From IMG/VR virus record IMGVR_UViG_2934853166_000001: DNA of 22,776 bases; one strand, written 5' to 3'. The position numbers and the translations under genes are program-made. The DNA is from an uncultured virus (IMG/VR IMGVR_UViG_2934853166_000001). Lineage: Duplodnaviria > Heunggongvirae > Uroviricota > Caudoviricetes. Position 1 is the stretch's first letter, and every line of letters begins with the position of its first letter. The notes below the pieces were generated by a model, which was not told where the DNA came from, searched no databases, and was given only the letters and a program-made list of their open reading frames with translations. Positions 1 through 19,872 of this stretch are shown in pieces.

Positions 1-260
1 GTTGGTGCGGTGTCCCCGCCCTGGAGGATCCGATACCAGGCGTAGATGCGGGACGCGGACCCGTCGGCGTAGGGCCACGTCACCCCGGGTAGCAGCGTCC
101 ATCCGGCGGGCGTGGACATGGTGAGGGACCCGCCGGACACGTGCCCCACGAGCAGGCCAATGTCGCCGGCAGCCCATCCCGCCGGGAAGGATGTGGCGAA
201 GCTGGTCGCAGTCGCGGAGCCGGGGTTGCCGGAGGCGACACCGACGTAGGAGACCGCCAC
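1..260 (-). CDS. Putative virion structural/receptor-binding protein, N-terminal part (runs off the window)
   Basis: Not in the ORF track. GTG at 260 follows a GGGGAGG RBS and the frame is open to base 1: MAVSYVGVASGNPGSATATSFATSFPAGWAAGDIGLLVGHV...STPAGWTLL...IYAWYRIL. The P-x-G-x-x-AGD / P-x-GWT pattern is typical of beta-sandwich phage tail/fibre domains. Confidence 0.75.
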   Translation of the reverse strand, partial: MAVSYVGVASGNPGSATATSFATSFPAGWAAGDIGLLVGHVSGGSLTMSTPAGWTLLPGVTWPYADGSASRIYAWYRILQGGDTAP

Positions 261-276
261 GGCGACCTCCCCGCAG

Positions 277-1203
277 TCAACGCATCAGGTCGACGAACGC
301 GGCCCGCTCGCGGTCCCTCACGTACGTCTGCCCTGACGGGTAGGCCAGGGTGGCGTGCAGATCGCAGTTGCCCCGGTAGAACCAGGCGACGTATGGCACG
401 TCCGGCAGCGCCCGCAGGAAGGCCATGTTGTCCCGCATCGCCTGCGCGCAGATCGCGCCGTCGAGGTCGTAGGTGGTCCCCGACTTGAGGGCCGGCTTGC
501 GTTGAATGCCCCACTCGGGAATCACCAACGGCCGACCAACCCGCCGGGCCGTGGCGAGCGCGAAGCCATTCCGCTCGGCCGGGGTGCGATAACGCTCATA
601 TCCGGTGTCGTAGATGTCGAACCCGACCGCGTCCACCCCGGGATAGGTGGCGACCTGCCCGAAGTCGGTCCACCACGAGGCGCTGCGGGTCGCCGCGTAC
701 TCGGTGAACACGGGCACCAACCACACCTCACGCCGACGCGGGTGGTCGGCCAGGGCCTCCAGCAGTTCCTTCCACTCCTGCCGATGCTCGGCGGGGGTAG
801 GGTCCCCGGAGTCTTGCTGCTCTGGTTCGTGGTCGAGGGTCACTAGGTCGATCACGCCGCGTCGGGCCGCCGGACGCGCCGACAGCCAGTCGCGGATCAG
901 CGCGGGCGAGGTGGTGCGAGACCAGTCCTTGAACGAGTAGTGCAGCACCGTTTGGGCTGGCACTTCGGCGAGCATTCCCGATGACCACGGGGCGATGCCT
1001 TTGCCCGGCGCGCTGTAGAGCCGCATCAGTCGGGGCTGCGGGTAGCGGGCCGCCATCCGCTGGATATCCGTCACCGTGCTGTCCGGTGGGCACCAGCCGA
1101 GCAGCGTTGACCGTGCCTCTACGGTGATCGTCGTCGCCGTGACGGTGGTGTTGCCGGCTGCGTCGCGGACCCGCCCGGTCAGGACGACCGTGCGGGTGGC
1201 CAT
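277..1203 (-). CDS. Glycoside hydrolase, clan GH-A / GH26-like TIM barrel, with an N-terminal Ig-type beta-hairpin
   Basis: Motifs LDHEPE (acid/base), YPGVDAVGFDIYD, PLVIPEWG (nucleophile) and terminal VAWF. Start overlaps the upstream stop (TGATG). Confidence 0.8.
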   Translation of the reverse strand: MATRTVVLTGRVRDAAGNTTVTATTITVEARSTLLGWCPPDSTVTDIQRMAARYPQPRLMRLYSAPGKGIAPWSSGMLAEVPAQTVLHYSFKDWSRTTSPALIRDWLSARPAARRGVIDLVTLDHEPEQQDSGDPTPAEHRQEWKELLEALADHPRRREVWLVPVFTEYAATRSASWWTDFGQVATYPGVDAVGFDIYDTGYERYRTPAERNGFALATARRVGRPLVIPEWGIQRKPALKSGTTYDLDGAICAQAMRDNMAFLRALPDVPYVAWFYRGNCDLHATLAYPSGQTYVRDRERAAFVDLMR

Positions 1204-1475
1204 CAGGCGACCGTGACCGTAAACCGGCCGGGCGCGGACGGGTCCTCGACGATCGTCACGCCCGGGTCGTTGGCGGTCAGCTCGTAGGTGAGCGGATCAC
1301 CGACGGTGAGGATCGTGTTGGCGGTCGCGGTCGCACCGTTCGCGTCGGTGACCGTGCCGGACAGGGTGATGGTGCGGGCGTCCGGGTCGAACGCGTCGAT
1401 CCACACCTGCACTGCCTGGCCAGGCTGCACAGTGTCCGGGGAGGCAGAGATGGAACGGATGATCGGGGCGGCCAT
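1203..1475 (-). CDS. Small Ig/PKD-like beta-sandwich protein (90 aa), putative virion appendage subunit
   Basis: ATG at 1475 follows AGGA. Sequence SASPDTVQPGQAVQVWIDAFDPD...GDPLTYEL and a TVTDANG turn are typical of PKD/Ig-like repeats. Confidence 0.75.
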   Translation of the reverse strand: MAAPIIRSISASPDTVQPGQAVQVWIDAFDPDARTITLSGTVTDANGATATANTILTVGDPLTYELTANDPGVTIVEDPSAPGRFTVTVA

Positions 1476-1498
1476 GGAGGTTCCTATCTGAATCATGG

Positions 1499-2035
1499 TC
1501 AGAGGGTGTCGCCGAGCCACGCGAACGTGACACCATCGGCGGCGAGCGGGGCGGTGTTGGCTGCGGTCCGGCGAGCCCAGAACGCGCGCACCTGGCCGGG
1601 GCCAATGTCACCGAGCGACAGGGCGGCACCGGAGGTGGTCGGCGTGGAGAACGTCACCCCGGCCGGCGCGGTCGTGTCGTTGGCGATCTGCACCGCCTGC
1701 GCCGACGACGAACCGACAGCCGACGCCGCAGTGGGGTCCACACCGATAGCCACCGACGCCCCACCAGAAACCTCAGCGGACATGTACACCTTCGCCGACT
1801 GGAGCGTCAGGCTGCCGTGGGTGTTGTGGACGAACACGCACGCATAGTCGACCTGACTCGCGGCGTTCTCGCTGCCGGTGATGTTCGGGAACAACCCGTT
1901 GGTGCTGCCGTCGGCGATCACCGTCGTCGACACGTACTTGCCGAGAGACGACCCCACCACCCCGGCCGTGGTGTTACCAGCCGACCCGGACGTGGTGGAC
2001 AGGCGGAACACAATGTCGGACGCGACGATCGCCAC
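1499..2035 (-). CDS. Putative virion structural protein (178 aa, Gly/Ser/Ala/Thr-rich beta protein)
   Basis: GGGGGTG RBS. The pattern MAIVASDI...SLG...LFPNI..SEN....DYACVFVHNTH...LGDIGPGQVRAFWARR resembles a recurring phage structural family. Lies in the morphogenesis operon. Confidence 0.75.
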   Translation of the reverse strand: MAIVASDIVFRLSTTSGSAGNTTAGVVGSSLGKYVSTTVIADGSTNGLFPNITGSENAASQVDYACVFVHNTHGSLTLQSAKVYMSAEVSGGASVAIGVDPTAASAVGSSSAQAVQIANDTTAPAGVTFSTPTTSGAALSLGDIGPGQVRAFWARRTAANTAPLAADGVTFAWLGDTL

Positions 2036-2045
2036 GGCGCACCCC

Positions 2046-2492
2046 CTACTCGGTGTCGATCACACCTGCGCGCTGGCAGGCGGCGATGATGTCGTCTCGG
2101 CCGGCGTCATCCGGGTAGGTGACCCCGGCGAGGTTGGCGTATGCCTGCCATGCGTCCAGGCCGCTACCCCGGCCACGGTGGGGTGGCGGCGGGGGAAGCG
2201 ACGGCTTCTCCGCCGGCTCCGGCTCGGCGGCCTTCACCGGCTCGTCGTCGTCGCTGTCCGGCGGCACGTCGGGTGCCGGCTCGGACACAGGCACCACCTC
2301 GGCTGGCCGCGCCTGCCGGTCCGGCTCCGACACCGGCACCGGGTCGCCCGGCCCCCCACCGTCCGCCGAAGCGGGGGCAGGAAGCCGGGCGTCCAACAGC
2401 TTGTACAGCTCGGTGACCACGTCGAGGACCGCCGCCACATGCTCGGCGGTCGACGTGTCCGGAGTCGGCAGGAATCTGCTGTGCAGAGTCAC
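2046..2492 (-). CDS. Hypothetical head-associated protein with Pro/acidic linker and C-terminal helix-extension-helix-like motif
   Basis: GTGA overlap with the upstream gene. C-terminus GSGLDAWQAYANLAGVTYPDDAGRDDIIAAC resembles small HeH/Rho-N-like modules found after capsid genes. Confidence 0.65.
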   Translation of the reverse strand: MTLHSRFLPTPDTSTAEHVAAVLDVVTELYKLLDARLPAPASADGGGPGDPVPVSEPDRQARPAEVVPVSEPAPDVPPDSDDDEPVKAAEPEPAEKPSLPPPPPHRGRGSGLDAWQAYANLAGVTYPDDAGRDDIIAACQRAGVIDTE

Positions 2493-2674
2493 AACAGCCC
2501 CCCATCGAGAGCGTTGAGAGCCTGCGCAACCTTCTGCGCTCGCCCCGCACTGTCGCCGCAGTCCGCCATGACCATGCCCCCTGTCAGGTCAACCACCAGA
2601 TAGTTGGAGGTGTCACCGACCGCCGCGCCCGCGTCGGCCGCGTAGAGGCCACGGACCACGACGTAGCGGGTCAC
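2489..2674 (-). CDS. Hypothetical protein (61 aa)
   Basis: GTG start overlaps the capsid gene stop and its stop overlaps the next start, so it fills the gap exactly (VTRYVVVRGLYAAD...ALNALDGGLL). Confidence 0.65.
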   Translation of the reverse strand: MTRYVVVRGLYAADAGAAVGDTSNYLVVDLTGGMVMADCGDSAGRAQKVAQALNALDGGLL

Positions 2675-3906
2675 GACTTGAGGCCGGTCGAAGCCACCGA
2701 AGACTTCGGGTCCATCAGGGTGCCGCCGAGGACCATGCGGACCCGGTACTGGATGGCGTCGTGTTCGAAGTCGCCCTCCTCCGGGGCGACCGGCCCGCCG
2801 CCGACCCGCATCGCGTTCGGCGACTTCACCCACAGCTCCGGGGTTTCGTGGCCGATCAGGAAACCCAGCTCCATGGCGGGGCGACCCACGTTCGGGTTCG
2901 CGAAGACGTACCAGGCAGTGTTGCCGGAGGTCGTGTTGACGATCGGCAGCCACGGGTTGACCACCACCTGGACGCGGTTACGCATCCAGTTGGTGACCCG
3001 AAGCTGGTCGTTGCCGGTGCCCGGCCCGCCGCCGGTCGCGGCGAGGATCTCGGTGGCGTTGATGATGTTGTTCGCGGCCACCTCCAGCGCGGGGGGCACC
3101 ACGAGGGTGACACCCTCCACGTAGATCGGCCCGCCGTCGGAGTCCTTCTGCTGGCCGAGAACCTGCATGGCCTGCTGGAGAGACGAGATCGACAGCTCCG
3201 GGTTCGCCGTCACCGTCGACCCGATCACCGTCGAGTTGATGATGTTCCGGTTGCCGGTGGAGAAGAACGTCGAGTTGGGGCCGGACGCGTCGGAGAACAG
3301 CTGCGCGGCGAACTTCTCCTCCGTGCGGCGGGCGGCGTTGCCGAGGCGGGTCGGCAGGTCGGTGAGGGCGTCGAGGTCGTCGTTGACCATCGTCTCCCAC
3401 GACACGGCGATCTGGTCGCCGTACTTCGCCACCGAGTAGCTGTACGCGTTGTCGGTGACACTGCGCACCTTGTACGGGGCGAGTTCCTTCACCTGGTTGA
3501 GGGTCGCCTCACCGCCGTCGAGCGTGTACCGCTTCACCGTGCGGAAGTCGCGGACCCGGCCCCGCTTGGCGTAGGTGGGCCACTGCACCGGCCGCGTCTG
3601 GTAGGCGGCGAGAAGCTGCCGGTCGATGATGTCACCGAACAGCACCGTGAAGTCGGCCCGACTCATCGCCTCCTGGAAGGCGACGGTGGCCCGACGGTCA
3701 CCCTCGATGGTGCCCCGGTACAGGCGGGTCAGACTCATCAGCCGCTGCCGGTAGTCGCGGGACTCCTGGCGGCGCTGTTGGCGGTTGGACAGCGGCATGC
3801 CGTCCGCGCCGAAGATCGCGTTGGTGCCGGCACCCTCGGTGCCGGCCTGGTAGGTGTCGAGCTGGCCCAGAGTTGCGGTGCCAGCGTCGAGCAGAGCGGA
3901 AGTCAT
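2671..3906 (-). CDS. Major capsid protein (HK97 fold, Mu gpT-like family)
   Basis: 411 aa with GAGGAG RBS. Motifs EAMSRADF, VRDFR, KYG..IAVSWETMVNDDLDAL, LVVPPALE, VVNPWL, FL.GHETPEL, DAIQYRVR. Located after the protease and cement genes. Confidence 0.92.
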   Translation of the reverse strand: MTSALLDAGTATLGQLDTYQAGTEGAGTNAIFGADGMPLSNRQQRRQESRDYRQRLMSLTRLYRGTIEGDRRATVAFQEAMSRADFTVLFGDIIDRQLLAAYQTRPVQWPTYAKRGRVRDFRTVKRYTLDGGEATLNQVKELAPYKVRSVTDNAYSYSVAKYGDQIAVSWETMVNDDLDALTDLPTRLGNAARRTEEKFAAQLFSDASGPNSTFFSTGNRNIINSTVIGSTVTANPELSISSLQQAMQVLGQQKDSDGGPIYVEGVTLVVPPALEVAANNIINATEILAATGGGPGTGNDQLRVTNWMRNRVQVVVNPWLPIVNTTSGNTAWYVFANPNVGRPAMELGFLIGHETPELWVKSPNAMRVGGGPVAPEEGDFEHDAIQYRVRMVLGGTLMDPKSSVASTGLKS

Positions 3907-3920
3907 GTGCGCTGGTCTCC

Positions 3921-4277
3921 TCAGTAGCCGACGCGAACGGGGATGGTGGTGGTCGCGCCGCTGCTGACCGCAGCCATCGCGTAGCCGAACCGGACCCCGT
4001 TCGTGGAGTCCTTGTTCAGCTTGTGGGGGGTGGCGGCGGTGTCGTAGTACAGGATGTCGCCGGCCGCGATCGCCGCGTCGGTGGTCGTCTCGCCCTTGAC
4101 GGACAGGTCGAACGTGCCGTTGAGGGCGACGGTGGTGACACCGTTGGAGTCCTCGGCGGTCAGCGCCACACCCGGGAGCTGCCCGAACAGCACCGGGTCA
4201 CCGGACTGCGGGGTGGTGGGGGCGGTGCAGACCAGCGGCAGGGACTCGGTCCACATGTAGACGGTGTTCTTCGCCAT
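3921..4277 (-). CDS. DUF2190-family capsid cement/decoration protein
   Basis: MAKN start, SGDPVLFGQLPGVAL, G.FDL, AIAAGDILYYD and FGYAMAAV...VRVG pattern. Lies between protease and major capsid genes. Confidence 0.85.
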   Translation of the reverse strand: MAKNTVYMWTESLPLVCTAPTTPQSGDPVLFGQLPGVALTAEDSNGVTTVALNGTFDLSVKGETTTDAAIAAGDILYYDTAATPHKLNKDSTNGVRFGYAMAAVSSGATTTIPVRVGY

Positions 4278-4279
4278 GA

Positions 4280-6196
4280 TCAGCCACGGCCCTTCGACGC
4301 GATGGAAGCTTGGGCCTCGTTCAGCCCGAGGGTGTCGGAGAAGAAGCTCTTGAGTTCGGCGTCGAACCCGTCGTCGGCGGGCGACTCCTGCCGGGGTGCG
4401 CCGAGCCCGTACGGCTGGCCAACACCGGCCTCTTCGAGGGCCTGCGCGCGGGCGGTCCGCACGTAGGTGGCCTCGTCGGCGATGACGGCGGTGATCCGCT
4501 CGCCCAGGACGGTCGTGTCGACGGCACCCTCGGCGGTGGTCGGGACCGCGTCGAGGATCCGGGCCGTCACCCTGGACCCGATCTGCCCGGCCACGTCGGC
4601 GTGCTCGGGGGAGCGCAGCGCGGCAGCGACAGCCTCAGTGGCGTGGGCCCGGTTCCGCAGCGCCGTGTTCTCCGACTGCTGGGCGGTGAGGGCGGCCTGC
4701 ACGGTGGCGAGCTGCTGGGTGACCGGAGTGAGGGCCTCGGTGAGGGCGGCGGCGACGAGCGCCTGCACGTCCACGCGCGGCGCGGCGGCCTCGGCGGCCG
4801 GGGCCGGCGGGTTGGTGGGGGCGGTGTCGACGACCGGTGCCGTCCCCGCCTCGGCCGGCGGCGTGCCGGTCGCGGTACCCGACATGTCGGGTCCTCCTTC
4901 GATGGGTGGGTTGGGTGCGGTCGGCGGGGTGCCGTCCGTCACGTCATCAGGGGTGGTACTGGCCGGCGGCGGGGTCGCCTCGGTGGGCGTGGGATCCGGC
5001 GTGGTGCAGGCGGCGGTGGCCTCTTCCGCCTGGGCGGTCTCCGGCGCGGGCGGCTCATCCCAGCGGTCCCGCTGAAACAGTTGCGGCGCATCCGCATCGA
5101 CCCGGGCCGTCCACGCCTGCAACGCGTCGCCGATCGCGCCCGACAGGGCGATCCGCTCGTCGCGGGACAGCCGCCCGTCGCCGTACATGTCGTCGGCGAG
5201 CTGCGTGAGCGCCAGATGCAGGCGGGACTCCAGCCACGCCCCCACATTCCGGGCCTCATCCACCGAGACGCTGTGCCCGACGGATTCGAGCACGGAGATG
5301 ATCGCGCCTCCCGCCGCTGGCTTGGTCACGAAGTCCACGGACCGGCCCGACTCGATGCGGTCGACCACGAAGCAGTCCCGGCCCTCGTACTCGCCGTGGT
5401 TCCCGGTGACCCATGCTCGGATGGACATGCCGATGTGCTCGGCCATGCTGGTGAGGGTTTCCCGCCACGGATGAAACAGTTGGACCTCAGCCACCAGCGA
5501 CTGCGACTCTTCGTCCCAACGGGCGTCCTCGGTGAGCACCCCGGCGAGGTTCTTGATCGAGCCGGAGGGGCGGGCGGCGTCCTCTTCATCGGTGGCGTGA
5601 TCGACGAAGGCTTGGCAGCCTCGGGCCCACGCCTTGTTCGCGGCGGCTGCCCGCAGCACCTCGGCCGGGTAGGCGTTTCCGTTGAGCGAGACTCCTGCGC
5701 GGATGAGACGCACAAGCATGCGGCCCGGCGTAGTGACGGTGGTACCGCCGACTGTCGCTTCCTCAACGCTTGTGCGCTCGACCTGGATGGTGTCGGCCTC
5801 TCCGGCGCTGTTGTTGCGCTTGTCTCCGGGCCAGTACCCGACCACATCCCGATGCAGTTCCGAGCAGTAGCCCTCAGGGTCGCTCATCTTGCCCTTGAGG
5901 GCTTTGACGCACCGAGTCCAGTCGCCCGCTGTGCCCCAGCCGATCTTGATTGCCCCGGGTCCAGATGTCCAATATTTCCGAAGTGTCGCAGCATTGCCGG
6001 ACTCGGCTTGATCGCAAGATGACTCGCCCTCACCCGCAGCCAGGCTTGGCCCGCTTTCCGGGCTCTCAGCGGCTTCCGCCTCCGGAGCGACAACCGCCTC
6101 GCTTGCCTCTCGCGTAACCAGCGCCGAACGGAATGCCGCCTCCGAGTACCGGCCGCCCTCTGAACTGAGGCTGATCTTTACGGGTCGCGTCGACAT
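4280..6196 (-). CDS. Prohead maturation protease-scaffold fusion with an N-terminal extra domain
   Basis: ATG at 6196 follows AGGAGG. Protease motifs IRAGVSLNGNAYP, FVDH (His), IGMSI (Ser), SVDFVTKPAAGG, then a Pro/Thr linker and an Ala-rich coiled-coil scaffold. Confidence 0.88.
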   Translation of the reverse strand: MSTRPVKISLSSEGGRYSEAAFRSALVTREASEAVVAPEAEAAESPESGPSLAAGEGESSCDQAESGNAATLRKYWTSGPGAIKIGWGTAGDWTRCVKALKGKMSDPEGYCSELHRDVVGYWPGDKRNNSAGEADTIQVERTSVEEATVGGTTVTTPGRMLVRLIRAGVSLNGNAYPAEVLRAAAANKAWARGCQAFVDHATDEEDAARPSGSIKNLAGVLTEDARWDEESQSLVAEVQLFHPWRETLTSMAEHIGMSIRAWVTGNHGEYEGRDCFVVDRIESGRSVDFVTKPAAGGAIISVLESVGHSVSVDEARNVGAWLESRLHLALTQLADDMYGDGRLSRDERIALSGAIGDALQAWTARVDADAPQLFQRDRWDEPPAPETAQAEEATAACTTPDPTPTEATPPPASTTPDDVTDGTPPTAPNPPIEGGPDMSGTATGTPPAEAGTAPVVDTAPTNPPAPAAEAAAPRVDVQALVAAALTEALTPVTQQLATVQAALTAQQSENTALRNRAHATEAVAAALRSPEHADVAGQIGSRVTARILDAVPTTAEGAVDTTVLGERITAVIADEATYVRTARAQALEEAGVGQPYGLGAPRQESPADDGFDAELKSFFSDTLGLNEAQASIASKGRG

Positions 6197-6227
6197 GACG
6201 CAGCGCCTCCTGCCTCCGTGCTGGTAG

Positions 6228-6269
6228 AACGACGAACGCCACCGGCGGTCTCCGGTGGCGTTCGTCGTT
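6228..6269 (-). terminator. 18-bp perfect inverted repeat, putative intrinsic terminator after the HNH gene
   Basis: AACGACGAACGCCACCGG-cggtct-CCGGTGGCGTTCGTCGTT, 8 nt past the HNH stop codon. Confidence 0.75.
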
Positions 6270-6277
6270 ATCAAGAT

Positions 6278-7063
6278 TTACGGTCGGACGCGCTGCTTCG
6301 ACTTCCACCGCAGCCATTCGATGAGGAACTTGTCACCCTTGCTGCTGTTGCAGGAGCGGCACGCTGGCACCAAGTTACCTTCGGCGTGTCTCCCGCCCCG
6401 GTTCAGCGGAACGAGGTGGTCGATAGTCTCGGCTGGCTGCGGACAGTAGGTGCAGGACCCGGCTCGAAGGCGACGAAGCACCTTGGCGGGAACCGGCAAG
6501 ACCTCGGCTTCCTGGAGCCGCACGCGCCGCGCGTGCACGTATCTGTAAACAACCTCAGGAGAACGATTCCGGCCCGCACATCGCTTGCTGCAATAAATCT
6601 TGTTCGTTGCTGCGGTAACAAAAACCACGCCACACACTAGACATGGTCGTTCGACCTTCGGTCGAGCCGCATAATAACGCGCGTGCAGATGCCATAGGCT
6701 GCCGCACCGGCGTGAACAGAACCGCGACTGATTCCAGTGCTGACGTATTACCGGAGACCCACATCGCGCACATGCCCGCATGGGCGGGTCCGCCACAGGT
6801 AGCCCTAGACGCTGACGGTTCCGGCCGCGCTGGTAGCAGGCATCGGTGCAGTAGACGGTGCCATGATGGCGACCTTCAAGGCTGGTGGCGCAGACAGGGC
6901 AGGCGGCGAGAGTGGGCTTGTCTGCCTCGGGCTTGCCCCGGTGCCGCCGCTCCTTGGACCTACGACGGCATCGTTCGCTACAGAAGCGCCGGTTACGGCT
7001 CGGGGACTCGTCGTCAAACTGCGCCGAGCAGGCGGCGCAGTTTTTGATGGTAGGCTCGCGCAT
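6278..7063 (-). CDS. HNH endonuclease with four N-terminal Cys4 zinc-finger repeats
   Basis: ATG at 7063 follows GGAGG. Four CxxC...(F/Y)C(S/T)xxC repeats, then CTYC...IDHLVPLNRGGRH...NLVPACRSCNSSK (McrA-type HNH). Confidence 0.9.
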   Translation of the reverse strand: MREPTIKNCAACSAQFDDESPSRNRRFCSERCRRRSKERRHRGKPEADKPTLAACPVCATSLEGRHHGTVYCTDACYQRGRNRQRLGLPVADPPMRACARCGSPVIRQHWNQSRFCSRRCGSLWHLHARYYAARPKVERPCLVCGVVFVTAATNKIYCSKRCAGRNRSPEVVYRYVHARRVRLQEAEVLPVPAKVLRRLRAGSCTYCPQPAETIDHLVPLNRGGRHAEGNLVPACRSCNSSKGDKFLIEWLRWKSKQRVRP

Positions 7064-7094
7064 GCGAGAACCTCCGCAGAAGGTGATCGCCACA

Positions 7095-12981: not shown

Positions 12982-13206
12982 TCAGGCGTCGTGGTCGACC
13001 GCGATGAGGACGGTTTCGGTGGCCGGCTGGTTGGGGCCGGTGGTGTAGCCGTTGCCGTTCTCGTCGAGGCGGAATCTGACTACTTCGACGCCTCGGTGGT
13101 CGATGGTGACGGTCTTCATGGTGTCGGCTTCTACGGGGTTGAGGCCGAGGTCGCGGAGGAAGCCGAGGATTCTGCTGAGGGGCACGCGGTGGGGGTCGTT
13201 GCTCAC
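12982..13206 (-). CDS. Hypothetical protein (74 aa), first gene of the late operon
   Basis: GTG at 13206 follows AAGGAGG; sequence MSNDPHRVPLSRILGFLRDLGL... Confidence 0.7.
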   Translation of the reverse strand: MSNDPHRVPLSRILGFLRDLGLNPVEADTMKTVTIDHRGVEVVRFRLDENGNGYTTGPNQPATETVLIAVDHDA

Positions 13207-13229
13207 GGGTGCCTCCTTCGGCGGGTGGT

Positions 13230-13269
13230 GTTCCCGGCCCGGGGCCACCCGCATGTCCGGGCCGGGAAC
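13230..13269 (-). promoter_or_regulatory. 13-bp stem-loop in the late-operon leader
   Basis: GTTCCCGGCCCGG-(14 nt)-CCGGGCCGGGAAC, immediately upstream of the first late RBS. Confidence 0.6.
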
Positions 13270-13299
13270 GGTCGGGGGCGCGGGTGCCGGGGAATGCCG

Positions 13300-13335
13300 A
13301 AAGCCCGCCGAGCGGCGAGGGCTCAGGCGGGCTTT
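13300..13335 (-). terminator. Terminator-like hairpin just downstream of the late promoter
   Basis: On +: AAAGCCCGCC-GAGC-ggcgagg-GCTC-a-GGCGGGCTTT. The stem ends in TTT on both strands. Confidence 0.6.
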
Positions 13336-13357
13336 GGGGACACTTCTCCCGTGCGTG

Positions 13358-13386
13358 ACTGTGACGGATCACGGCGATCTTGTCAA
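13358..13386 (-). promoter_or_regulatory. Putative late promoter TTGACA-N17-CACAGT
   Basis: Perfect -35 (13381-13386), 17-nt spacer and a -10 of the xAxxxT type (13358-13363). Overlaps the 3' end of the HTH gene and points into the terminase operon. Confidence 0.7.
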
Positions 13387-13800
13387 CTGGGCTCGCCGTT
13401 GTCGGTTCTGGGTGATGGTGTTTGCGGCTTCCCGGACGTGTTGGGCGAGGTAGGTGCGTGACTTGCCGCGCCATCCGAAGCGGGGCAGGAGCGGCTGGTC
13501 GGGGTGGTGTGGGTGGGGGGTGCATGCCCATTGGCGGATGACGTCTTCGCTGACGTTGGCGAGTTGGGCGGCTTCGGCGGTGGTGATGGCGTCGGTGTCT
13601 TCGGCGGTGACGGTTTGGGGGATGACCCAGGTTTCGCCGAATAGTTGGGCGGTGGCGTCTGCTTCTGCGCAGGCGTCGGGGTTGGCGGCGTTGGCGATGG
13701 CCCGGTACATGTGGGCGATTTTTTGGGCGCGGTCGGTGGCGGTGTCGCCGGGGTAGGGCCAGGGTTGGCGGCGGCCTTGGATGTCGAGGTCGGGGTTCAC
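13369..13800 (-). CDS. Helix-turn-helix DNA-binding protein (MerR/excisionase-type HTH), candidate late regulator
   Basis: C-terminal 143 aa of the 525-aa track ORF, with GTG overlapping the upstream stop. Contains ITTAEAAQLANVSEDVIRQWA...RTYLAQHV. Confidence 0.8.
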   Translation of the reverse strand: MNPDLDIQGRRQPWPYPGDTATDRAQKIAHMYRAIANAANPDACAEADATAQLFGETWVIPQTVTAEDTDAITTAEAAQLANVSEDVIRQWACTPHPHHPDQPLLPRFGWRGKSRTYLAQHVREAANTITQNRQRRAQLTRSP

Positions 13801-14534
13801 GCGTTGGCTCCGGCGCGGGCGGGCCACACGAGTTGGGTGACGTATTGCTGGTAGTCGGTGTGGGGCCAGGTGGTGTGGCAGTTGTTGCAGTACACGTCGC
13901 AGGGATCGTGTTCGTGGCGGGGGTCGTCGCGGTGGAGTTCGTTGTATCCGCAGGTGGAGCAGGTGCCGGGTAGGTGGGTGGTGCGGTGGGTGCGGCCGAG
14001 CATGCCCCGGGCGCGTGCGTGGAGGTGTTGGAGGTGGTGGATGGCTTGCCAGCCGGTGATCGGGGTGGGGTCGTCTTCGCAGCCGGTGGGGTACACGTCG
14101 GCGGCTTCGATGGCGGCGAGCTGGCGGAGGCGTGGGGCGAGGATGGTGATGGCGTGTTGGAGTGCGGCACCGGGCCGGCGGGGCTGGTCGGGTACCCAGT
14201 TGGAGAGGCCGCAGTGGTCGCGCACGATTTCTTCCCACGTGACGGCCACGTGCACGATTTCGGCTTGTAGGGCTTCTGCCGCGCCGTTGAGGGGCATGGG
14301 GGGTGCGGCTTTGCCGGTGGGCTGCATGTGGAGGGCCTGCGACAGGCTGGGGGCTTGGAGCTGTTCGAGGTCGACGTAGTCGTAGACGAGGCTGCGGATG
14401 TCGCGTTCGGCGGCTGCAAGGCACGCGTCGCAGAGGGGACTGCTGGTGGTGTCGGCGGGAGCCTTGGTGGTGGGGTTGTAGGCGCGGCACCGGGTGTCGG
14501 AGACGCAGTGTCCGGTGGGGGTGGTGTGGTGCAT
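13797..14534 (-). CDS. Zinc-finger protein, candidate late transcription regulator
   Basis: GGAG RBS. Cys motifs C....RC, LCDAC, CSTC and CNNC...W. Occupies the slot just before the late promoter. Confidence 0.75.
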   Translation of the reverse strand: MHHTTPTGHCVSDTRCRAYNPTTKAPADTTSSPLCDACLAAAERDIRSLVYDYVDLEQLQAPSLSQALHMQPTGKAAPPMPLNGAAEALQAEIVHVAVTWEEIVRDHCGLSNWVPDQPRRPGAALQHAITILAPRLRQLAAIEAADVYPTGCEDDPTPITGWQAIHHLQHLHARARGMLGRTHRTTHLPGTCSTCGYNELHRDDPRHEHDPCDVYCNNCHTTWPHTDYQQYVTQLVWPARAGANA

Positions 14535-14642
14535 GTGCTGGGTCTCCGATCAGGCGTGGGTACGCTGGGCGGTGACCTTCACGCGGGGGCGTGGGGTGGC
14601 TTGGTGGCGGTCCGTTCTGGGGAGGGCGGGCCGCCGCTGCCG

Positions 14643-14870
14643 TTAGGTCGTGGATCGCTTCCACAGATCGGTGTCGCAGGTGCGGCAATGCACGGATAGC
14701 CAGCCGAGGATCGAGTTTTCGGCGATGGTGTCGTGTTCGAGGTGCTGCTGGAACATGTCTCGCACGTCGGGCGGAAACTCGTCTAGGCGGAGGGTCAGCG
14801 ATACGGGCATTTTGTGGGTGTGGACGGTGACGTTGTGCCACCACTTCTCTGCTGGCATCTCGGCGGTCAC
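14643..14870 (-). CDS. Hypothetical protein (75 aa, HxH...CxxC)
   Basis: GTGA overlap with GGAGG RBS. Confidence 0.65.
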   Translation of the reverse strand: MTAEMPAEKWWHNVTVHTHKMPVSLTLRLDEFPPDVRDMFQQHLEHDTIAENSILGWLSVHCRTCDTDLWKRSTT

Positions 14871-15064
14871 TGCGCCTCCATGATTCGCCGCCACGTGGTG
14901 TGGCTGTCGGCGTCGAGCTGTTCGGGGGTGGGTGGTGTGGCCGCATGCGTGTGGTCGCCTGCCGGCCAGTTGTAGATCAGGGTCGGTTCGGGTTTGCAGA
15001 GCTGCCAGTCTTCGATGACGTCGTCGGGCTCAACGCCGCACTGCCAGCAGCGCACCTCGGTCAC
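14867..15064 (-). CDS. Hypothetical protein (65 aa, CxxC...HxH)
   Basis: GTGA overlaps at both ends; sequence VTEVRCWQCGVEPD...GDHTH. Confidence 0.65.
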   Translation of the reverse strand: MTEVRCWQCGVEPDDVIEDWQLCKPEPTLIYNWPAGDHTHAATPPTPEQLDADSHTTWRRIMEAQ

Positions 15065-15297
15065 CGCGCCGGGTTGCTGCGAGGCGCGTCCTGTGCCGCC
15101 TGGCGGGCGCGGTGCCGCCGGTAGGCGTGATGGCCGAACAGTGCGGTGGCGACCGTGTAGGTGAGGATGATCGCCCACGTCGGGGGGTGTACGGCCCACG
15201 CCCACAGAGCCAGCAGGGCCGCCATGGCCAGGTACAACACGGCGAGTGCTGCGATCCGTGGGCTGTTGTCTCGCATCCAGCGACGGGTGTCGGTCAT
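15061..15297 (-). CDS. Small membrane protein (two predicted TM helices)
   Basis: ATGA overlap. Hydrophobic segments IAALAVLYLAMAALLALWAWAV and WAIILTYTVATALFG, followed by a basic tail. Confidence 0.7.
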   Translation of the reverse strand: MTDTRRWMRDNSPRIAALAVLYLAMAALLALWAWAVHPPTWAIILTYTVATALFGHHAYRRHRARQAAQDAPRSNPAR

Positions 15298-15525
15298 CGT
15301 GGGCTCCATTCGGTGCGGTAGCCGGACTCGGTCGAGAACGCTGCGGCCAACGCACGCGCGGTCGGGCAGGGGTAGTCGAGCCAGGTGGCCTCGCAGGCGG
15401 GCGGTTCCGCGCACACCGCGCAGACGGTGCGTGTGCCGGCCTGCTCGGGGCCGTGTTCGGCGAGGACTGCGGGCTTCGGCGGCATCGATCTGCTGGCCGA
15501 GCCACGGCGCGAGGTGTTCGGTCAT
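15294..15525 (-). pseudogene. DUF6221-like paralogue 4, internally deleted and frameshifted
   Basis: MTEHLAPWLGQQIDAAEAR lies in one frame and AVLAEH...YPCPTARALAAAFSTESGYRTEWSPR in another. The span is 232 nt (not a multiple of 3) and the central DPxRxL motif is missing. Confidence 0.7.
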
Positions 15526-15938
15526 GGCCGCCACGCCTCCCGGTATCCGGGCCAGGTCGCGTACGCCGAGGCGATTGACTTGACGTCATCCAGGTAGGCG
15601 ACGGCGGCAGCTTGGCTGATGTCGTTCGGCCAGCCTCTGGCTTTGGCGTGTGCCGCATGGTCGGCGGCGGTCTTGTATCTGGCGATGATGGCGCGGTGGG
15701 CGGCCACCAAGGCGAGCACCTGTTCGGGATCGTTGCCGGCGATGTGTTCGCCGTGTTCTTCTTCGAGATCGCCGTATAGGCCGGTGACGATCGACCCAGG
15801 ATGCCTGGACGCGTCGGCGGGGTAGACGCCCCCGCCGGGGCTGTATGTCCAGTTGGCTCCGTGGTTGGCGGCTGCGTGTGCTCGCTGTTCGATGCGGTCG
15901 AGCACCCCGGTCAGCCACGGCGTAGGGTCGTCGGTCAC
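15522..15938 (-). CDS. DUF6221-like protein, paralogue 3
   Basis: VTDDPTPWL...HIAGNDPEQVLALVAAHRAII...IASAYATWPGYREAWRP; GTGA overlap. Confidence 0.8.
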   Translation of the reverse strand: MTDDPTPWLTGVLDRIEQRAHAAANHGANWTYSPGGGVYPADASRHPGSIVTGLYGDLEEEHGEHIAGNDPEQVLALVAAHRAIIARYKTAADHAAHAKARGWPNDISQAAAVAYLDDVKSIASAYATWPGYREAWRP

Positions 15939-16234
15939 GTCGGCCGCCATTCCTCGCGGTAGCCGTCCTGCTCGGCGTACGCCAGGGCGAGGTGCTCCCG
16001 CACGCGGACGGCCATCCCGTCCGTGGCTGCCTCTGCGCCGTTTCGGACGTATTCTGCGGCGTCGTCGAGGACACGCCGCTTGGCGTACACGTCGCCGATC
16101 AGGAAGTCGCCTGTCTGGGTCAGGAAGCGGGCCGCCTCGCCGGGGAGGGCGTACGCCATGGTTTTGAGGGTTTCGCCCTTGAGGCGCTGGTTTTCGAGCT
16201 GCTGGTCGAGCCACATGGCGAGGTCGTCGGTCAC
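15935..16234 (-). CDS. DUF6221-like protein, paralogue 2
   Basis: VTDDLAMWLDQQL...DVYAKRRVLD...LALAYAEQDGYREEWRPT; GTGA overlap. Confidence 0.8.
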   Translation of the reverse strand: MTDDLAMWLDQQLENQRLKGETLKTMAYALPGEAARFLTQTGDFLIGDVYAKRRVLDDAAEYVRNGAEAATDGMAVRVREHLALAYAEQDGYREEWRPT

Positions 16235-16659
16235 TGCTCTCCCCACATCTCCTGGTAGCCGGGTCGGTCGTCGTAGACGGCGGCGAGGGCACGCCGCTCC
16301 GGGCAGTCGTTGACGTTCGCCACAACCGGGTCGTCGCAGTCGCCTTCGTAGCCGCATCCGTGGCAGCAGTTATCAGACGACCATCCGGCAGAGTCGGGGT
16401 AGACGTCTGCGCGTCGGCGGTGGATGTCGAGGATAGTGCGCTTGAACGCGACCTCACGCAGGGTGCGGCTCGGGTCGTTGAGTGCCATGTGTTCGGCTGC
16501 GCCGTCGATGTACACCCAGTCGACCACGTCGTCCGGCGGATTGCCGGCGTGGATGGTGCCGTCGAGGGCCCATGTGCGGTCTTTCTCAGGCACCCTGAGT
16601 GCGGTGCGCTCGTCCTCGTCGATCTGGGCGTGGAGCCAGGCTGCCTGCTCGTCGGTCAT
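16231..16659 (-). CDS. DUF6221-like protein, paralogue 1
   Basis: MTDEQAAWLHAQIDEDERTA...HMALNDPSRTLREVAFKRTIL...CPERRALAAVYDDRPGYQEMW. Confidence 0.85.
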   Translation of the reverse strand: MTDEQAAWLHAQIDEDERTALRVPEKDRTWALDGTIHAGNPPDDVVDWVYIDGAAEHMALNDPSRTLREVAFKRTILDIHRRRADVYPDSAGWSSDNCCHGCGYEGDCDDPVVANVNDCPERRALAAVYDDRPGYQEMWGEQ

Positions 16660-16838
16660 GCGGACTGCCCCGGTGATGAGTCGGAGAGCAGCGGCCCGAT
16701 GGTGTCACGGACCTCGTCGGCTATCCGCGCAGTCTCGTCGGCGAGTTGTCTGAGCGCGGGCCGGACGGCTTCGGTGAACGTGGCGGCGACGTGTTCGGCG
16801 GATTCCGCGATCAGCGCGAAGGGGTTCGGGTGGGTCAT
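16656..16838 (-). CDS. Hypothetical helical protein (60 aa)
   Basis: GAAGAGG RBS; stop overlaps the next start. Confidence 0.6.
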   Translation of the reverse strand: MTHPNPFALIAESAEHVAATFTEAVRPALRQLADETARIADEVRDTIGPLLSDSSPGQSA

Positions 16839-16845
16839 GGCCTCT

Positions 16846-17091
16846 TCATCCTCGGAGAGCGTCGATGACGATGTTCCGTTTCGTTCTGATCCGTGCGGCT
16901 AGCCCGTCCACGGTGCGCGCCTCCGGGTGTGACGTTGACCGTGCGTCGCGGATGGCTTGGTCGCGGACGTGTTGGGCTTGTTTGAGGGTTGCCCGGCCGT
17001 TGGTGATGAACTCTTGACAGGCTGCGGCTCGCGCCACCGGGTCGGCAATGCGGTTGAGCGCCGCAATGGTGGCGTTTTCCCTGGTGGGCAT
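16846..17091 (-). CDS. Small HTH-like regulator (81 aa), probably leaderless
   Basis: ATG lies 6 nt after TACAAT. The segment VRDQAIRDAR...TVDGLAARIRTKRNIV resembles a helix followed by an HTH. Confidence 0.7.
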   Translation of the reverse strand: MPTRENATIAALNRIADPVARAAACQEFITNGRATLKQAQHVRDQAIRDARSTSHPEARTVDGLAARIRTKRNIVIDALRG

Positions 17092-17097
17092 GCATTT

Positions 17098-17141
17098 ATT
17101 GTACGTGTTGCGTGCCGCATATAGCATGCGTCATGGCGCAT
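17098..17141. promoter_or_regulatory. Overlapping divergent promoter elements with operator-like palindromes
   Basis: Minus-strand -10 TACAAT (17098-17103). Plus-strand TTGTAC-N17-TAGCAT (17099-17127). Palindromes TGCGtgcCGCA (17109-17119) and ATGCGTCATGGCGCAT (17126-17141). The patch is AT-rich. Confidence 0.6.
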
Positions 17142-17443
17142 TATTCGCGTTTGCTGCCGCAGTTTTTGGGCCGCATCCAGTACGACTCTTCGGTGTAGTC
17201 GAATCGCTCCCACCCGTCGCGGCCGGCGTGAACGTTGCGCACCCATCCGTCGCCGTCCGGTGGCACGTCGGAGTAGTCCCACGCTTTCCGCTGGCCTTCG
17301 GTGGTGGCGTACTCCCAGTCGGGGTGTGCCATGTCGGCGTGAAGCTCTGGGTCGGTGCGTCGGCGCTGCTGGGCGTAGTAGACGGCCATGCTTTCGGCGT
17401 GGGTGCGCTGCCGGCAGAGGGCATGGGGGATGGTGTCGTTCAC
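17141..17443 (-). CDS. Hypothetical protein (100 aa, Trp-rich)
   Basis: GTGA overlap and GGAGG RBS; sequence includes DWEYATTEG...GDGWVRN...GWERFDYTEESYWMRP. Confidence 0.75.
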   Translation of the reverse strand: MNDTIPHALCRQRTHAESMAVYYAQQRRRTDPELHADMAHPDWEYATTEGQRKAWDYSDVPPDGDGWVRNVHAGRDGWERFDYTEESYWMRPKNCGSKRE

Positions 17444-17658
17444 GGATGGCCTCCGGTGGGTTCGTCGGCGGCGTCGAACAGGTCGGGTCCGTCCTGCGGT
17501 TCGGCGCGCGGCCGGGGGATGGCTGGCGTGGTGAGGCCGTACCGCCGGGCGCATTCCGGCCCGTACCCGCCCGGCCCGGGGTGTTTGAGCACCTTCCGGC
17601 AGAACGGGTTGGCGCAGCGCAGAGGTTCGGGTGCGCCCGGCAGCAGCGGCAGGGTCAT
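17440..17658 (-). CDS. Small zinc-finger protein (DUF6011-like)
   Basis: C....CRKVL......GYGPECA motif; ATG lies just after the ligase stop. Confidence 0.7.
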   Translation of the reverse strand: MTLPLLPGAPEPLRCANPFCRKVLKHPGPGGYGPECARRYGLTTPAIPRPRAEPQDGPDLFDAADEPTGGHP

Positions 17659-17662
17659 CGGG

Positions 17663-18247
17663 TCAGCCGGTCGGGAAGTCTCGGCGCTTGAGCTTCGCGC
17701 GCCTGCCATCCGGGTGATGCCACACGATGCCCTCCCACTTCGGGTGGGCGAGTGTCCAGTTCCGCAGACCGTCGAAGTCGAGACGCAAGTCCGCCAGGGC
17801 GACGTCGTCCACCGCAGCCCGGTAGCCGTGCCGCACCAGCAAATGTTCCGACACGTTCTCCGGGTTCCCGTTGACGCGCGGCCCCACCAGCTCGTAGGTG
17901 GCGTCTGCCTGCGGGATCCGGCCGATCGGGTGGTCGATGATGTCGCGGGTGAGGGCGTCGGCGTGGAACTTGGCGAACGACGACTGTTCGATGGGTTCCC
18001 ATCCGACCGTCTTGCCGGTGGTGTCGTCGGTCATGACGGGCCGGTAGCCGGCGGGGGTCTTCTTGCCGGGCTTCACCTCGCGGCGCGCCCACCAGTGGTT
18101 GCCGTCGAACAGCACGCAGGTTCCGTCGTATTTGCGGGTGGGGGTGCCTTCTCCGTCGAGCACCCACTTGCAGTCGGGGTGTACGTCGGGGGTGACGTGC
18201 CGCATGTCGTCGGGGTTGCGGAGGAACAGGGTGGGGATCTTGCGCAT
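17663..18247 (-). CDS. DUF5565 / RLIG1(C12orf29)-like ATP-dependent RNA ligase
   Basis: ATG at 18247 follows GGAG; starts MRKIPTLF. Nucleotidyltransferase motifs KYDGT (I), TYELVGPRVNGNP (III), EGIVW (IV) and AKLK (V). Confidence 0.8.
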   Translation of the reverse strand: MRKIPTLFLRNPDDMRHVTPDVHPDCKWVLDGEGTPTRKYDGTCVLFDGNHWWARREVKPGKKTPAGYRPVMTDDTTGKTVGWEPIEQSSFAKFHADALTRDIIDHPIGRIPQADATYELVGPRVNGNPENVSEHLLVRHGYRAAVDDVALADLRLDFDGLRNWTLAHPKWEGIVWHHPDGRRAKLKRRDFPTG

Positions 18248-18270
18248 GGTTGTCTCCGTTCGCTGGCGGT

Positions 18271-18660
18271 TCAGTGCTGCTGTGCCGGGTTGGGGGTGGG
18301 CTCGGGTACCGCGCCGGTCCGTTCGGCGGTTGTGGGGGCGCTCAGCGGGCCGGGGCCCCACTCTGGCGCGAACGCCTCACCGAACTGGTCACCGTCGCCG
18401 CGATGCCATCCGACGTGACCGGCGGGCAGCACGCACGTCTGCCGTGGGGCGTGGGTGACAGTCGGACACCAGTCGCCGCAGCGGCCGACAGCGCGGTTGG
18501 CCACCGTGAGGGCTGCTACGAGGCCGGCGCGCACAGCATCCCTCTCCACTGACACCGCGTCGCCTTGGCTGATGGGTGCGCGGGCTTTCCACGTGGCGGC
18601 GTAGGCGCGGCTGTATGCCTCCACCATGGCGTCGGTGACGAGCAGCGGAATGTCGGTCAC
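18271..18660 (-). CDS. Hypothetical protein (VTDAMVEA helix plus C..C.L..GH.GWH metal-binding motif)
   Basis: GTGA overlap and GAGG RBS. Confidence 0.7.
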   Translation of the reverse strand: MTDIPLLVTDAMVEAYSRAYAATWKARAPISQGDAVSVERDAVRAGLVAALTVANRAVGRCGDWCPTVTHAPRQTCVLPAGHVGWHRGDGDQFGEAFAPEWGPGPLSAPTTAERTGAVPEPTPNPAQQH

Positions 18661-18932
18661 GGCGTCGCCTCACTGGTTTGGTTGGTGCGCTCGCAACCCG
18701 GGGTGGTGCAGCGGGCAACGTCGCCGTCCCACTCGACGGTGACGACCGGTCGACCGTCCGGGCCGGTGCGGTCGGAGTGCCCGGGGATCGGGCACATCCA
18801 GAAGCGGATCCTCACGCCGCCCAGGGCGTCGAGCATCTCGTCGAAGGTGAGTGTCTGGTCGAGCTGGCAGCCGTCCCCGTTGAGGGGCAGGCAGATAGCG
18901 TGCGTGCAGCCAGCGTGAGGGGCATCGGTCAC
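18657..18932 (-). CDS. Hypothetical Cys/His-rich protein (91 aa)
   Basis: GTGA overlaps at both ends; GGAGGTG RBS. Confidence 0.7.
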   Translation of the reverse strand: MTDAPHAGCTHAICLPLNGDGCQLDQTLTFDEMLDALGGVRIRFWMCPIPGHSDRTGPDGRPVVTVEWDGDVARCTTPGCERTNQTSEATP

Positions 18933-19291
18933 GGGGTCACCTCCGGGATGGGCTGGATCTCGTGTTCGAGCACGCCGAGCATGTTGGCGATGTCTTCGCC
19001 TGCCGCCTCAAGGCCACGCGCGAACGCCCGATGCATGGCGGCCTGCCGCTTGTCCCGCTCGCCGCCGGTCTTGGCGCGTTCCTGGGAGCGTGTGTAGCCG
19101 GTGGTGGCCCGGTAGCCGGCGGCGTGGTCGTGCAGCTTCCAGTACAGGTGGGTGAGGGTGGCCGTGTAGGCGGCGTCGGCTGCCGCCTGGAACGCTTCGC
19201 CGGTGCCGAGCCCTTCCCGATCGGTGTAGGCGGCGCGGGTGGCGGCGCGTACCGCCTCGGGGGCGGACACGCGGTGCGGGGCGGTGGTCAC
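18929..19291 (-). CDS. Hypothetical helical protein (120 aa)
   Basis: GTG at 19291 overlaps the upstream stop; GAGGTG RBS. Confidence 0.7.
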   Translation of the reverse strand: MTTAPHRVSAPEAVRAATRAAYTDREGLGTGEAFQAAADAAYTATLTHLYWKLHDHAAGYRATTGYTRSQERAKTGGERDKRQAAMHRAFARGLEAAGEDIANMLGVLEHEIQPIPEVTP

Positions 19292-19872
19292 TGCTGCACC
19301 TCGAATTCCGTCCACGGGCCGGTCAGCGTCGAACCGTCCCGATACTCGGTCACCGTCCGCCTGCGCCCGTCGAGGGGCACCCGATGCAGACGCCTCGCGG
19401 CGCTCACCTCGCGGGCAAGTCGGGTGTCGAACTCGTCTGCTGGCCACGAGTAGCTGATTCCGTTGACGCCCCGGCCGGGTGCGGCCCGGTCGTCGACCCA
19501 GTTGATGTCGGCCTCAACGGTGGTCGTTCCTCCGCCGTCGGCGTCCAGGGCGTTGAGGACGGCGGTGGTGACATGCCCTCGTTCGGTCAGGGCCACGAAT
19601 CGGTTGACCTCGCTGAGGGCACGGGTGAGGGCGTTGAACGCGGTGGTGTAGCGGTGACGGCTTCCGGAGTACGGGGGGAGCTTCGATGCAAACCGAGCGG
19701 GGATGGTCGTGTCGGTCGGTTGCGTCTCGGTGACGGGCTCGCCCTGGGCCCGGTCGTATGCGGCGAGTAGGCAGGTGTAGTCGTCGCACAGGTGCGCGCC
19801 AACGATGCCGTCGGCGGTGGTGGACGGCTTGCCGCAGGACTCGCAGGGGGTGCGCTCGGTCGTGTCGGTCAC
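19288..19872 (-). CDS. Hypothetical protein with N-terminal CxxC...C....C zinc motif (194 aa)
   Basis: GTG at 19872 overlaps the upstream stop; GAGGAGG RBS. Confidence 0.7.
   Translation of the reverse strand: MTDTTERTPCESCGKPSTTADGIVGAHLCDDYTCLLAAYDRAQGEPVTETQPTDTTIPARFASKLPPYSGSRHRYTTAFNALTRALSEVNRFVALTERGHVTTAVLNALDADGGGTTTVEADINWVDDRAAPGRGVNGISYSWPADEFDTRLAREVSAARRLHRVPLDGRRRTVTEYRDGSTLTGPWTEFEVQQ

Follow-up and report, generated by a model that had tools for sequence, protein, structure and literature searches.

The window analysed here is a stretch of 22,776 nucleotides from an uncultured virus (IMG/VR record IMGVR_UViG_2934853166_000001), in which two overlapping genes encode a small protein of 90 amino acids and, immediately after it, a glycoside hydrolase of 308 amino acids. 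A preliminary description of this DNA had proposed that the small protein is an immunoglobulin (Ig)-like domain without its terminal strands, that a copy of those strands is inserted inside it, and that the hydrolase opens with the same two strands. The present analysis concerns this pair of genes and the single domain that they may encode between them. The window has a GC (guanine plus cytosine) content of approximately 69%, and all genes of interest lie on its minus strand. It is a prophage in a Micromonospora-like genome; the nearest homologues of both the small protein and the hydrolase are all from Micromonospora, the hydrolase of the window is itself recorded on a contig of 353 kb, and the host is an actinobacterium. 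The features of the pair are the following.

277..1203, minus strand: hydrolase gene, 308 amino acids, a clan GH-A-type glycosidase resembling PF11790 (Pfam and homologues)
514..516, minus strand: E230 in the EWG motif, candidate nucleophile (invariant in 30 sequences)
817..831, minus strand: HEPEQ, residues 125-129 of the hydrolase, candidate acid/base glutamate motif (all five residues invariant in 30 sequences)
1120..1197, minus strand: N-terminal hairpin of the hydrolase, residues 3-28, putative F-G strands of a split PKD-like domain (hairpin alignments and fusions)
1201..1205, minus strand: TGATG, with one base common to the stop codon of the small gene and the start codon of the hydrolase gene (sequence)
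1203..1475, minus strand: small gene, 90 amino acids from ATG (open reading frame and translation; homologues share the start methionine)
1284..1301, minus strand: GDPLTY, residues 59-64 of the small protein, second half of a split loop motif and start of strand C (alignment and comparison with phage NrS-2)
1302..1379, minus strand: internal beta-hairpin of 26 residues (33-58), F-G-like and inserted in the B-C loop (exact gap against the NrS-2 domain)
1380..1388, minus strand: DPD, residues 30-32, first half of the split loop motif (D30, P31 and D32 invariant in the alignment of close homologues)

The small protein, the hydrolase and the hairpin they share

The strands of the 90-residue protein run in the order A, A', B, inserted hairpin, C, C' and E, and the chain ends right after strand E. 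An uninterrupted homologue was found as a domain within an annotated tail-fibre protein of Nitratiruptor phage NrS-2. A BLASTP alignment of the small protein with this domain (E 5e-10) contained one gap of exactly 26 residues, at residues 33-58. Similarly, the family profile (including a fused form) matched the NrS-2 domain over 97 columns with the same gap (hhalign E 1.4e-13, probability 98.1%), and the match continued through the F-G hairpin. The NrS-2 domain has an unbroken loop motif, DPDGD-LTY, and its strand E leads on, within one chain, to the F-G hairpin. The earlier proposal that a hairpin splits this motif into DPD and GDPLTY is thus confirmed by the gap seen with both methods. Judged by these alignments, the 26-residue segment is a true insertion, an F-G-like copy placed in the B-C loop, and the comparisons support the description of the small protein as a PKD/Ig-like domain without its last two strands.

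The protein has 19 close homologues of 89-96 amino acids and belongs to a broad, unannotated family, for which a profile search of 1.84 billion representatives returned 617 at E of at most 1e-3 and 135 at E of at most 1e-10. Among the best 150 matches, 71 are stand-alone proteins of at most 130 amino acids that align end to end; the 19 close homologues and these 71 proteins from the exhaustive profile search form the stand-alone set of 90. Every member ends within 17 residues of strand E (79 of the 90 within three), so that none carries the C-terminal F-G strands. The insertion is likewise present in all 90, with a length of 21-30 residues, exactly 26 in 78 of them.

Scans of the small protein gave only sub-threshold matches in Pfam (RNase_II_C_S1, 19.7 bits against a cut-off of 26.6; Ig_VWA7, 14.1 against 27) and no match in PHROGs or NCBIfam; the inserted hairpin and the absent strands probably break curated domain models. 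Among deposited phages, blastn of positions 1-4300 and tblastn of the hydrolase revealed no relatives, and tblastn of the small protein and of the protein P0080 matched only the Nitratiruptor tail-fibre domain. No viral contig was matched by P0080 or P0071 as single queries. The small-protein family was present in only two of 401 sampled genomes of the class.

In one protein of 358 amino acids (P0054), the small domain stands at the C-terminus, retains the internal hairpin and again ends after strand E. The first 270 residues of this protein have no Pfam, PHROG, NCBIfam or PDB sequence match, and, judging from it, the split domain may join other cargo too.

The hairpin shared by the two genes had been noticed as an ungapped match between residues 33-58 of the small protein and residues 3-28 of the hydrolase, and this match was reproduced: 12 of 26 residues are identical, as are 47 of 78 bases. 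By BLASTP, the pair on its own is only weakly similar (E 0.009 for the best core, which is 14 residues long). A comparison of profiles built from 59 small proteins and 30 hydrolases aligned the same two hairpins (hhalign E 1.5e-4, probability 52%), and MAFFT, unprompted, set the hydrolase N-termini onto the internal hairpin. Further, in all 11 split loci, including a distant pair (L017), the last base of the small gene's TGA is also the first base of the ATG of an enzyme that has the hairpin at its start; duplicate contigs (L001, L003, L004, L013, L014 and L015) and a partial fusion (L016) are omitted from this count. In the window, the shared base lies between TGA at 1203-1205 and ATG at 1201-1203. 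The anatomy claimed at the outset, with terminal strands missing from the small protein, a copy inserted internally and the same two strands opening the hydrolase, is supported by the NrS-2 alignments, the 90 stand-alone members and the split loci.

The window hydrolase scores 18.1 bits against the Pfam family PF11790 (Glyco_hydro_cc; cut-off 21), and relatives exceed the cut-off (P0031, 29.4; the enzyme of locus L005, 25.3; P0045, 22.0; P0042, 21.2). Source records name relatives GH26. Thirty hydrolase homologues were found, and in all 30 the glutamates E126 and E128 of HEPEQ and E230 of EWG are invariant, in keeping with the conserved catalytic glutamates of clan GH-A. By analogy with enzymes of this clan, HEPEQ would hold the acid/base and E230 would be the nucleophile. 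A comparison of the hydrolase family with PDB sequences gave nothing meaningful.

The N-terminal hairpin of the hydrolase is kept across enzyme subtypes. The L005 enzyme represents a second subtype, related to the window hydrolase family with an hhalign E of 7e-28. In the distant pair at L017, the small protein belongs to the family with an E of 5.7e-11, and the enzyme, of 345 amino acids, has no family match in Pfam, PHROGs or NCBIfam scans. An unrelated catalytic type was considered for this enzyme and rejected, since it carries HE and AEWG motifs of the GH-A-like kind and its N-terminal part gives a weak hhalign match.

Two further proteins (P0031, 524 amino acids, and P0036, 508 amino acids) contain the same hydrolase domain without the hairpin, fused to an N-terminal region of 200 residues. 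This region was at one point likened to the 444-residue protein encoded downstream of the pair, a likeness that was rejected (BLASTP E 7.9); it matches PHROG 26064 (function unknown) instead, with an E of 1.7e-43.

Natural fusions and fold models

Both halves occur in a single open reading frame in a protein of 367 amino acids (P0059, three cluster members from several Micromonospora records) and in a 78%-identical metagenome gene (L019, positions 657-1757). In these fusions, strand E is followed by a five-residue turn, a canonical F-G hairpin and then the catalytic domain. They surfaced only in the exhaustive profile search; a search for longer proteins starting from the small protein found no fusions at E of at most 0.01. 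A single reading frame in relatives, whether from a recent split or a sequencing error, had been named beforehand as a finding that would refute the proposed hairpin donation. Such relatives do exist. More than a single-base change separates their linker from the split junction, and P0059 and L019 are real fusions and not sequencing errors.

An AlphaFold2 model of residues 1-125 of the L019 fusion, built from a 69-row alignment, had a predicted local distance difference test score (pLDDT) of 93.7 and a predicted template-modelling score (pTM) of 0.78, with all five models at 85.8 or above. It contains nine strands, including the internal hairpin (34-43 and 49-58), strand C (62-68) and the terminal hairpin (94-104 and 109-118). 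Compared with known structures by VIA-align, the model matched 96 chains at Z of at least 8, with Z values of 9-10 over 83-92 aligned residues. PKD domains were aligned nearly whole, in particular 4u7k_A (85 of 86 residues, root-mean-square deviation (rmsd) 2.2, Z 9.3) and 4xed_A (83 residues, rmsd 1.9, Z 9.4), and 87 of 91 residues of the Ig domain of lambda gpV were aligned. On the model, the aligned ranges extend from residue 1 to approximately 120, with the terminal hairpin within the aligned core. Approximately 35 of these 120 residues are extra, which fits the 26-residue insertion plus loops. On the strength of these models, we are confident in the prediction that the fused N-terminus folds as a complete PKD/Ig sandwich that makes use of the terminal hairpin.

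The window small protein modelled alone, from a 20-row alignment, reached a pLDDT of 80.2 and a pTM of 0.54, with residues 59-72 as coil, and its best structural match had a Z of 5.3. The GDPLTY stretch, coil when the small protein is modelled by itself, is a strand (62-68) in the fused form; the two strands of the internal hairpin, at 34-43 and 49-58, are present in both models. The difference is no more than suggestive of a better predicted fold for the fused form than for the small protein alone. A Foldseek comparison with the PDB gave no match at E of at most 0.001 for either model.

A second copy in Micromonospora rubida (L016, G002:C12; protein P0028, 309 amino acids) retains residues 1-34 of the small protein, as far as DPD-SR, fused to one G-like strand plus the hydrolase. 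It has lost strands C to E and the greater part of each hairpin, and the next gene resembles the tail-like one downstream of the pair in the window. This copy looks like a deletion product in a decaying prophage.

A domain probably rebuilt in trans and competing explanations

On balance, we favour, as probable, a PKD-like domain that is split across two translationally coupled genes and rebuilt in trans to tether a GH26-like glycosidase. The two genes would encode both halves of one PKD/Ig-like beta-sandwich, with strands A to E and an extra hairpin in the B-C loop contributed by the 90-residue protein and the missing F-G hairpin supplied by the first 28 residues of the glycosidase. After synthesis, the enzyme hairpin would enter the open sheet of the small protein, in a two-strand form of fold complementation, and the product would be a non-covalent complex carrying an Ig-like module at the N-terminus of a clan GH-A (GH26-like) glycosidase. 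We infer that the split halves bind in trans, and the substrate of the complex would presumably be a glycan of the cell envelope, attacked from the virion or during lysis. Among the three readings offered in the preliminary description, whose structural premise of a split domain stands, a hairpin-mediated hetero-complex had been only an alternative and is now the best supported.

Another of those readings was a fusion by frameshifting across TGATG. Work of Fraser and colleagues from 2006 is said to describe phage Ig-like domains that are sometimes joined on in this way, and a programmed -1 frameshift, or other recoding, could make one fused polypeptide from both frames; single-open-reading-frame relatives exist, and the hydrolase frame is open for 21 to 490 codons upstream of its ATG. 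Open frames of such length are, however, expected by chance at approximately 69% GC. No in-frame slippery heptamer (X XXY YYZ) is present in eight of the 11 split loci, and in the other three a shift at the heptamer CCCGGGC, 61 nucleotides upstream of the stop, would replace the conserved strands C' and E. The exact TGATG overlap together with a conserved methionine is instead the usual signature of coupling, and termination-reinitiation would be the ordinary reading of such a junction; by eye, no obvious Shine-Dalgarno-like run was seen in the 20 nucleotides upstream. The frameshift proposal thus found no support, and we regard recoding as highly improbable.

The other explanations turn on the internal hairpin, for which covariation was analysed by mean-field direct coupling analysis (mfDCA) of 90 sequences (effective number approximately 79). 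The couplings recover the A-B, B-E, C'-E and hairpin ladders. They also assign the inward-facing side of hairpin strand 1 to the core, where the residues of the pairs 40-66, 9-40 and 26-38 compensate each other in size; the hairpin is therefore structural and not a loose arm. If the domain is rebuilt in trans, the hairpin would most likely widen or stabilise the half-domain. A further antiparallel diagonal, between hairpin strand 1 and strand C, reaches 0.63 at i+j = 104 and 0.41 at 106 (B-E, 0.70; A-B, 0.53). In addition, D44 at the hairpin tip (1344-1346) is lost only together with D60 (1296-1298), in four of four cases, and D60 is lost alone in eight sequences; within one chain, these residues would lie approximately 30 Å apart if the hairpin is straight. 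Neither this diagonal nor the D44-D60 pair can be satisfied within one chain, because only a three-residue turn separates hairpin strand 2 from strand C.

That the internal hairpin makes the 90-residue protein self-sufficient, a closed monomer merely co-expressed with an enzyme whose own hairpin is a relic or a strap on its barrel, seems unlikely to us. Modelled alone, the small protein does have about the usual number of strands and a moderately confident Ig-like fold, in which 58-65 of 90 residues align to Ig domains of invasin, FdeC and lambda gpV at a Z of approximately 5; the hairpin must be part of the core in that model, as so many residues could not align otherwise. Both the covariation of hairpin strand 1 with the core and the presence of the insertion in every stand-alone member agree with such a monomer. 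On the other hand, enzymes of different subtypes retain the hairpin, invariably at the coupled junction, and in the fusions a hairpin placed directly after strand E completes the canonical PKD fold with far better scores. Further, to judge from the loop lengths, within one chain the insertion could not take the F-G slot in the canonical antiparallel register, since its strand directions would be reversed. Quite unlikely, in our estimate, is a polymer by donor-hairpin exchange, in which the internal hairpin of each small subunit fills the F-G groove of the next and the hydrolase hairpin caps the last groove. The universal presence of an F-G paralogue in stand-alone forms would suit such a polymer, as would the joint loss of D44 and D60 and a strand-1/strand-C diagonal that is about as strong as true ladders and cannot form within one chain. 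The effective number of sequences is nevertheless small and the 44-60 signal comes from four sequences; the pair 36-68 falls outside the top 45 couplings, and the strongest coupled pair, 40-66, also fits an arrangement within one chain. Fused forms, in which the groove is filled in cis, still keep the insertion. An exchange fibre with an enzyme tip, assembled free of chaperone and usher in the actinobacterial cytoplasm or on the phage particle, is accordingly doubtful to the same degree.

Several points also weigh against a domain completed in trans. The filling of the groove by the enzyme hairpin was modelled only in cis, on a natural fusion, and the strand contacts in the models are inferred from aligned ranges only. 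The contrast in fold quality between the fused form and the small protein alone is confounded, as it compares different proteins at alignment depths of 69 and 20 rows. The hydrolase hairpin might, alternatively, pack against the barrel of the enzyme itself. Complementation also leaves unexplained the purpose of the internal hairpin, which persists in the fused lineage. By eye, no obvious N-terminal signal peptide was seen in the small protein or the hydrolase, in the window or the split-locus sequences, and copies of the pair at a phage-free chromosomal locus (described below) blur the site of action.

Several known systems resemble this arrangement in part. Chaperone-usher pili (Fim, Pap, Caf1) are built by donor-strand complementation and exchange, and there, as here, an Ig-like fold whose gene leaves it short at the C-terminal end is made whole by beta-structure that the N-terminus of another chain contributes. 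An acceptor without its C-terminal strand or strands is what is found in all 90 stand-alone members, which stop after strand E. Unlike in the pili, two strands (a hairpin) are missing and not one, the donor is an enzyme and not a pilin, a paralogous hairpin lies inside the acceptor, and obvious signal peptides are lacking. Among the neighbouring open reading frames scanned (in the window, L005, L006, L008, L010 and L012), no periplasmic chaperone or usher family was found, and the pair is not a member of the chaperone-usher pilus systems. SpyTag/SpyCatcher derives from engineered splitting of Ig-like (CnaB2) domains. The likeness lies in an Ig-like domain divided into a short beta 'tag', from its C-terminal end, and a large 'catcher', whose reassembly tethers a cargo; the present split, however, is natural, its tag is a two-strand hairpin at the N-terminus of the cargo, the genes overlap, and no isopeptide chemistry is indicated.

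Structural Ig-like domains of phages (the C-terminal domain of lambda gpV, T5 pb6, the phi29 capsid and the SU10 tail) belong to the same fold class and appear as structural matches, and the NrS-2 tail-fibre domain is directly homologous in sequence; the pair in the window also lies in a phage late operon. Each of those domains is contiguous in one chain, whereas the present one is divided over two genes and contains an insertion of 26 residues. In multimeric phage lysins of the PlyC type, a catalytic subunit associates with separately made binding subunits. Similarly, a catalytic and a small non-catalytic chain are encoded side by side here, and at L005 and L006 the pair directly precedes a holin gene. 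In contrast to PlyC, the catalytic domain is GH-A/GH26-like and not a recognised peptidoglycan hydrolase, association would complete one shared domain, and the window pair lies between head and tail genes and not in a lysis cassette.

A full-text literature search, judged on titles and the openings of abstracts, found no split Ig/PKD domain common to a small protein and an enzyme. If the halves bind, the pair would be a natural 'tag and catcher', in which a 28-residue hairpin leading the enzyme completes the Ig-like protein of the preceding gene. Fold complementation, known from pili and from engineered split domains, would then also serve phages and actinobacteria in building enzyme complexes out of separately encoded parts, and a widespread unannotated family of 90-residue proteins would be explained. 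The pair could further serve protein engineering as a compact, non-covalent docking module. An evolutionary puzzle is why the acceptor, in all split forms, contains an additional copy of the donated hairpin.

Genomic settings and neighbouring genes

The small gene and the hydrolase gene keep together in three different genomic contexts. In prophages of the window type and of a second type (L008), the pair is flanked by head genes on one side and by head-tail joining genes on the other. At L005 and L006, it follows tail genes, including one for an SGNH tail protein, and stands directly before the holin gene. At L010 and L012, it is found among genes for Spo0M, a methyltransferase, D-Tyr-tRNA deacylase, a PfkB kinase and an indigoidine-synthase-A-like protein, and family scans detected no phage gene within 8 kb; L009 and L011 show the same flanking pattern of open reading frame sizes. 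Across these four Micromonospora genomes (L009-L012), the site of the pair seems to be a single conserved chromosomal locus surrounded by housekeeping genes. Flanking the L019 fusion are open reading frames read by eye as acetyltransferase-like and DivIVA-like. A virion fibre was first proposed for the pair, which lies in the late operon in the window but elsewhere beside a holin gene or among housekeeping genes. Location in the virion is therefore uncertain, and a fibre is only one of several possibilities; some contexts would be suited equally well by an accessory of lysis or by a cellular enzyme of domesticated origin.

According to family scans of its open reading frames, the window holds a siphovirus-type late operon. 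It comprises a weak terminase match, a Mu-F-like protein and an HNH endonuclease, and also encodes a protease/scaffold protein, a cement/decoration protein and the major capsid protein. The C-terminus of a 148-amino-acid protein of the operon matches a head-tail connector PHROG. After a 178-amino-acid protein come the 90-residue gene, the 308-residue hydrolase gene and the start of a further gene, so that the pair is flanked by the following.

1499..2035, minus strand: 178-amino-acid neighbour upstream of the small gene (PHROG 13135, function unknown)
3..260, minus strand: start of the downstream gene, truncated by the edge of the window (a 444-amino-acid, repeat-rich, tail-like protein in an 88%-identical relative)

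The PHROG 13135 neighbour is not kept beside the pair in other contexts. The downstream tail-like protein matches PHROG 6079 ('tail protein') with an E of 9.8e-11, and in the 88%-identical relative the 444-residue gene is followed by open reading frames that, on inspection by eye, look like genes for head-tail joining, the major tail protein, a chaperone and the tape measure.

Elsewhere in the window, a 271-amino-acid protein with a CGNR zinc finger and an HNH endonuclease domain (6278-7093, minus strand) is encoded between the Mu-F-like head gene and the protease/scaffold gene. A protein of 664 amino acids (4280-6274, minus strand) has one segment matching PHROG 6439, another of the head-maturation protease type and a long tail rich in Ala, Pro and Thr, and looks like a protease-scaffold fusion. 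For the open reading frames of the region 13001-20000, the only Pfam matches are to DUF6221 (15522-16457) and, at 17663-18361, an RNA-ligase-1-like segment. This region also shows strong strand asymmetry; at 13-15 kb, the GC skew rises to +0.32 and the AT skew falls to -0.38.

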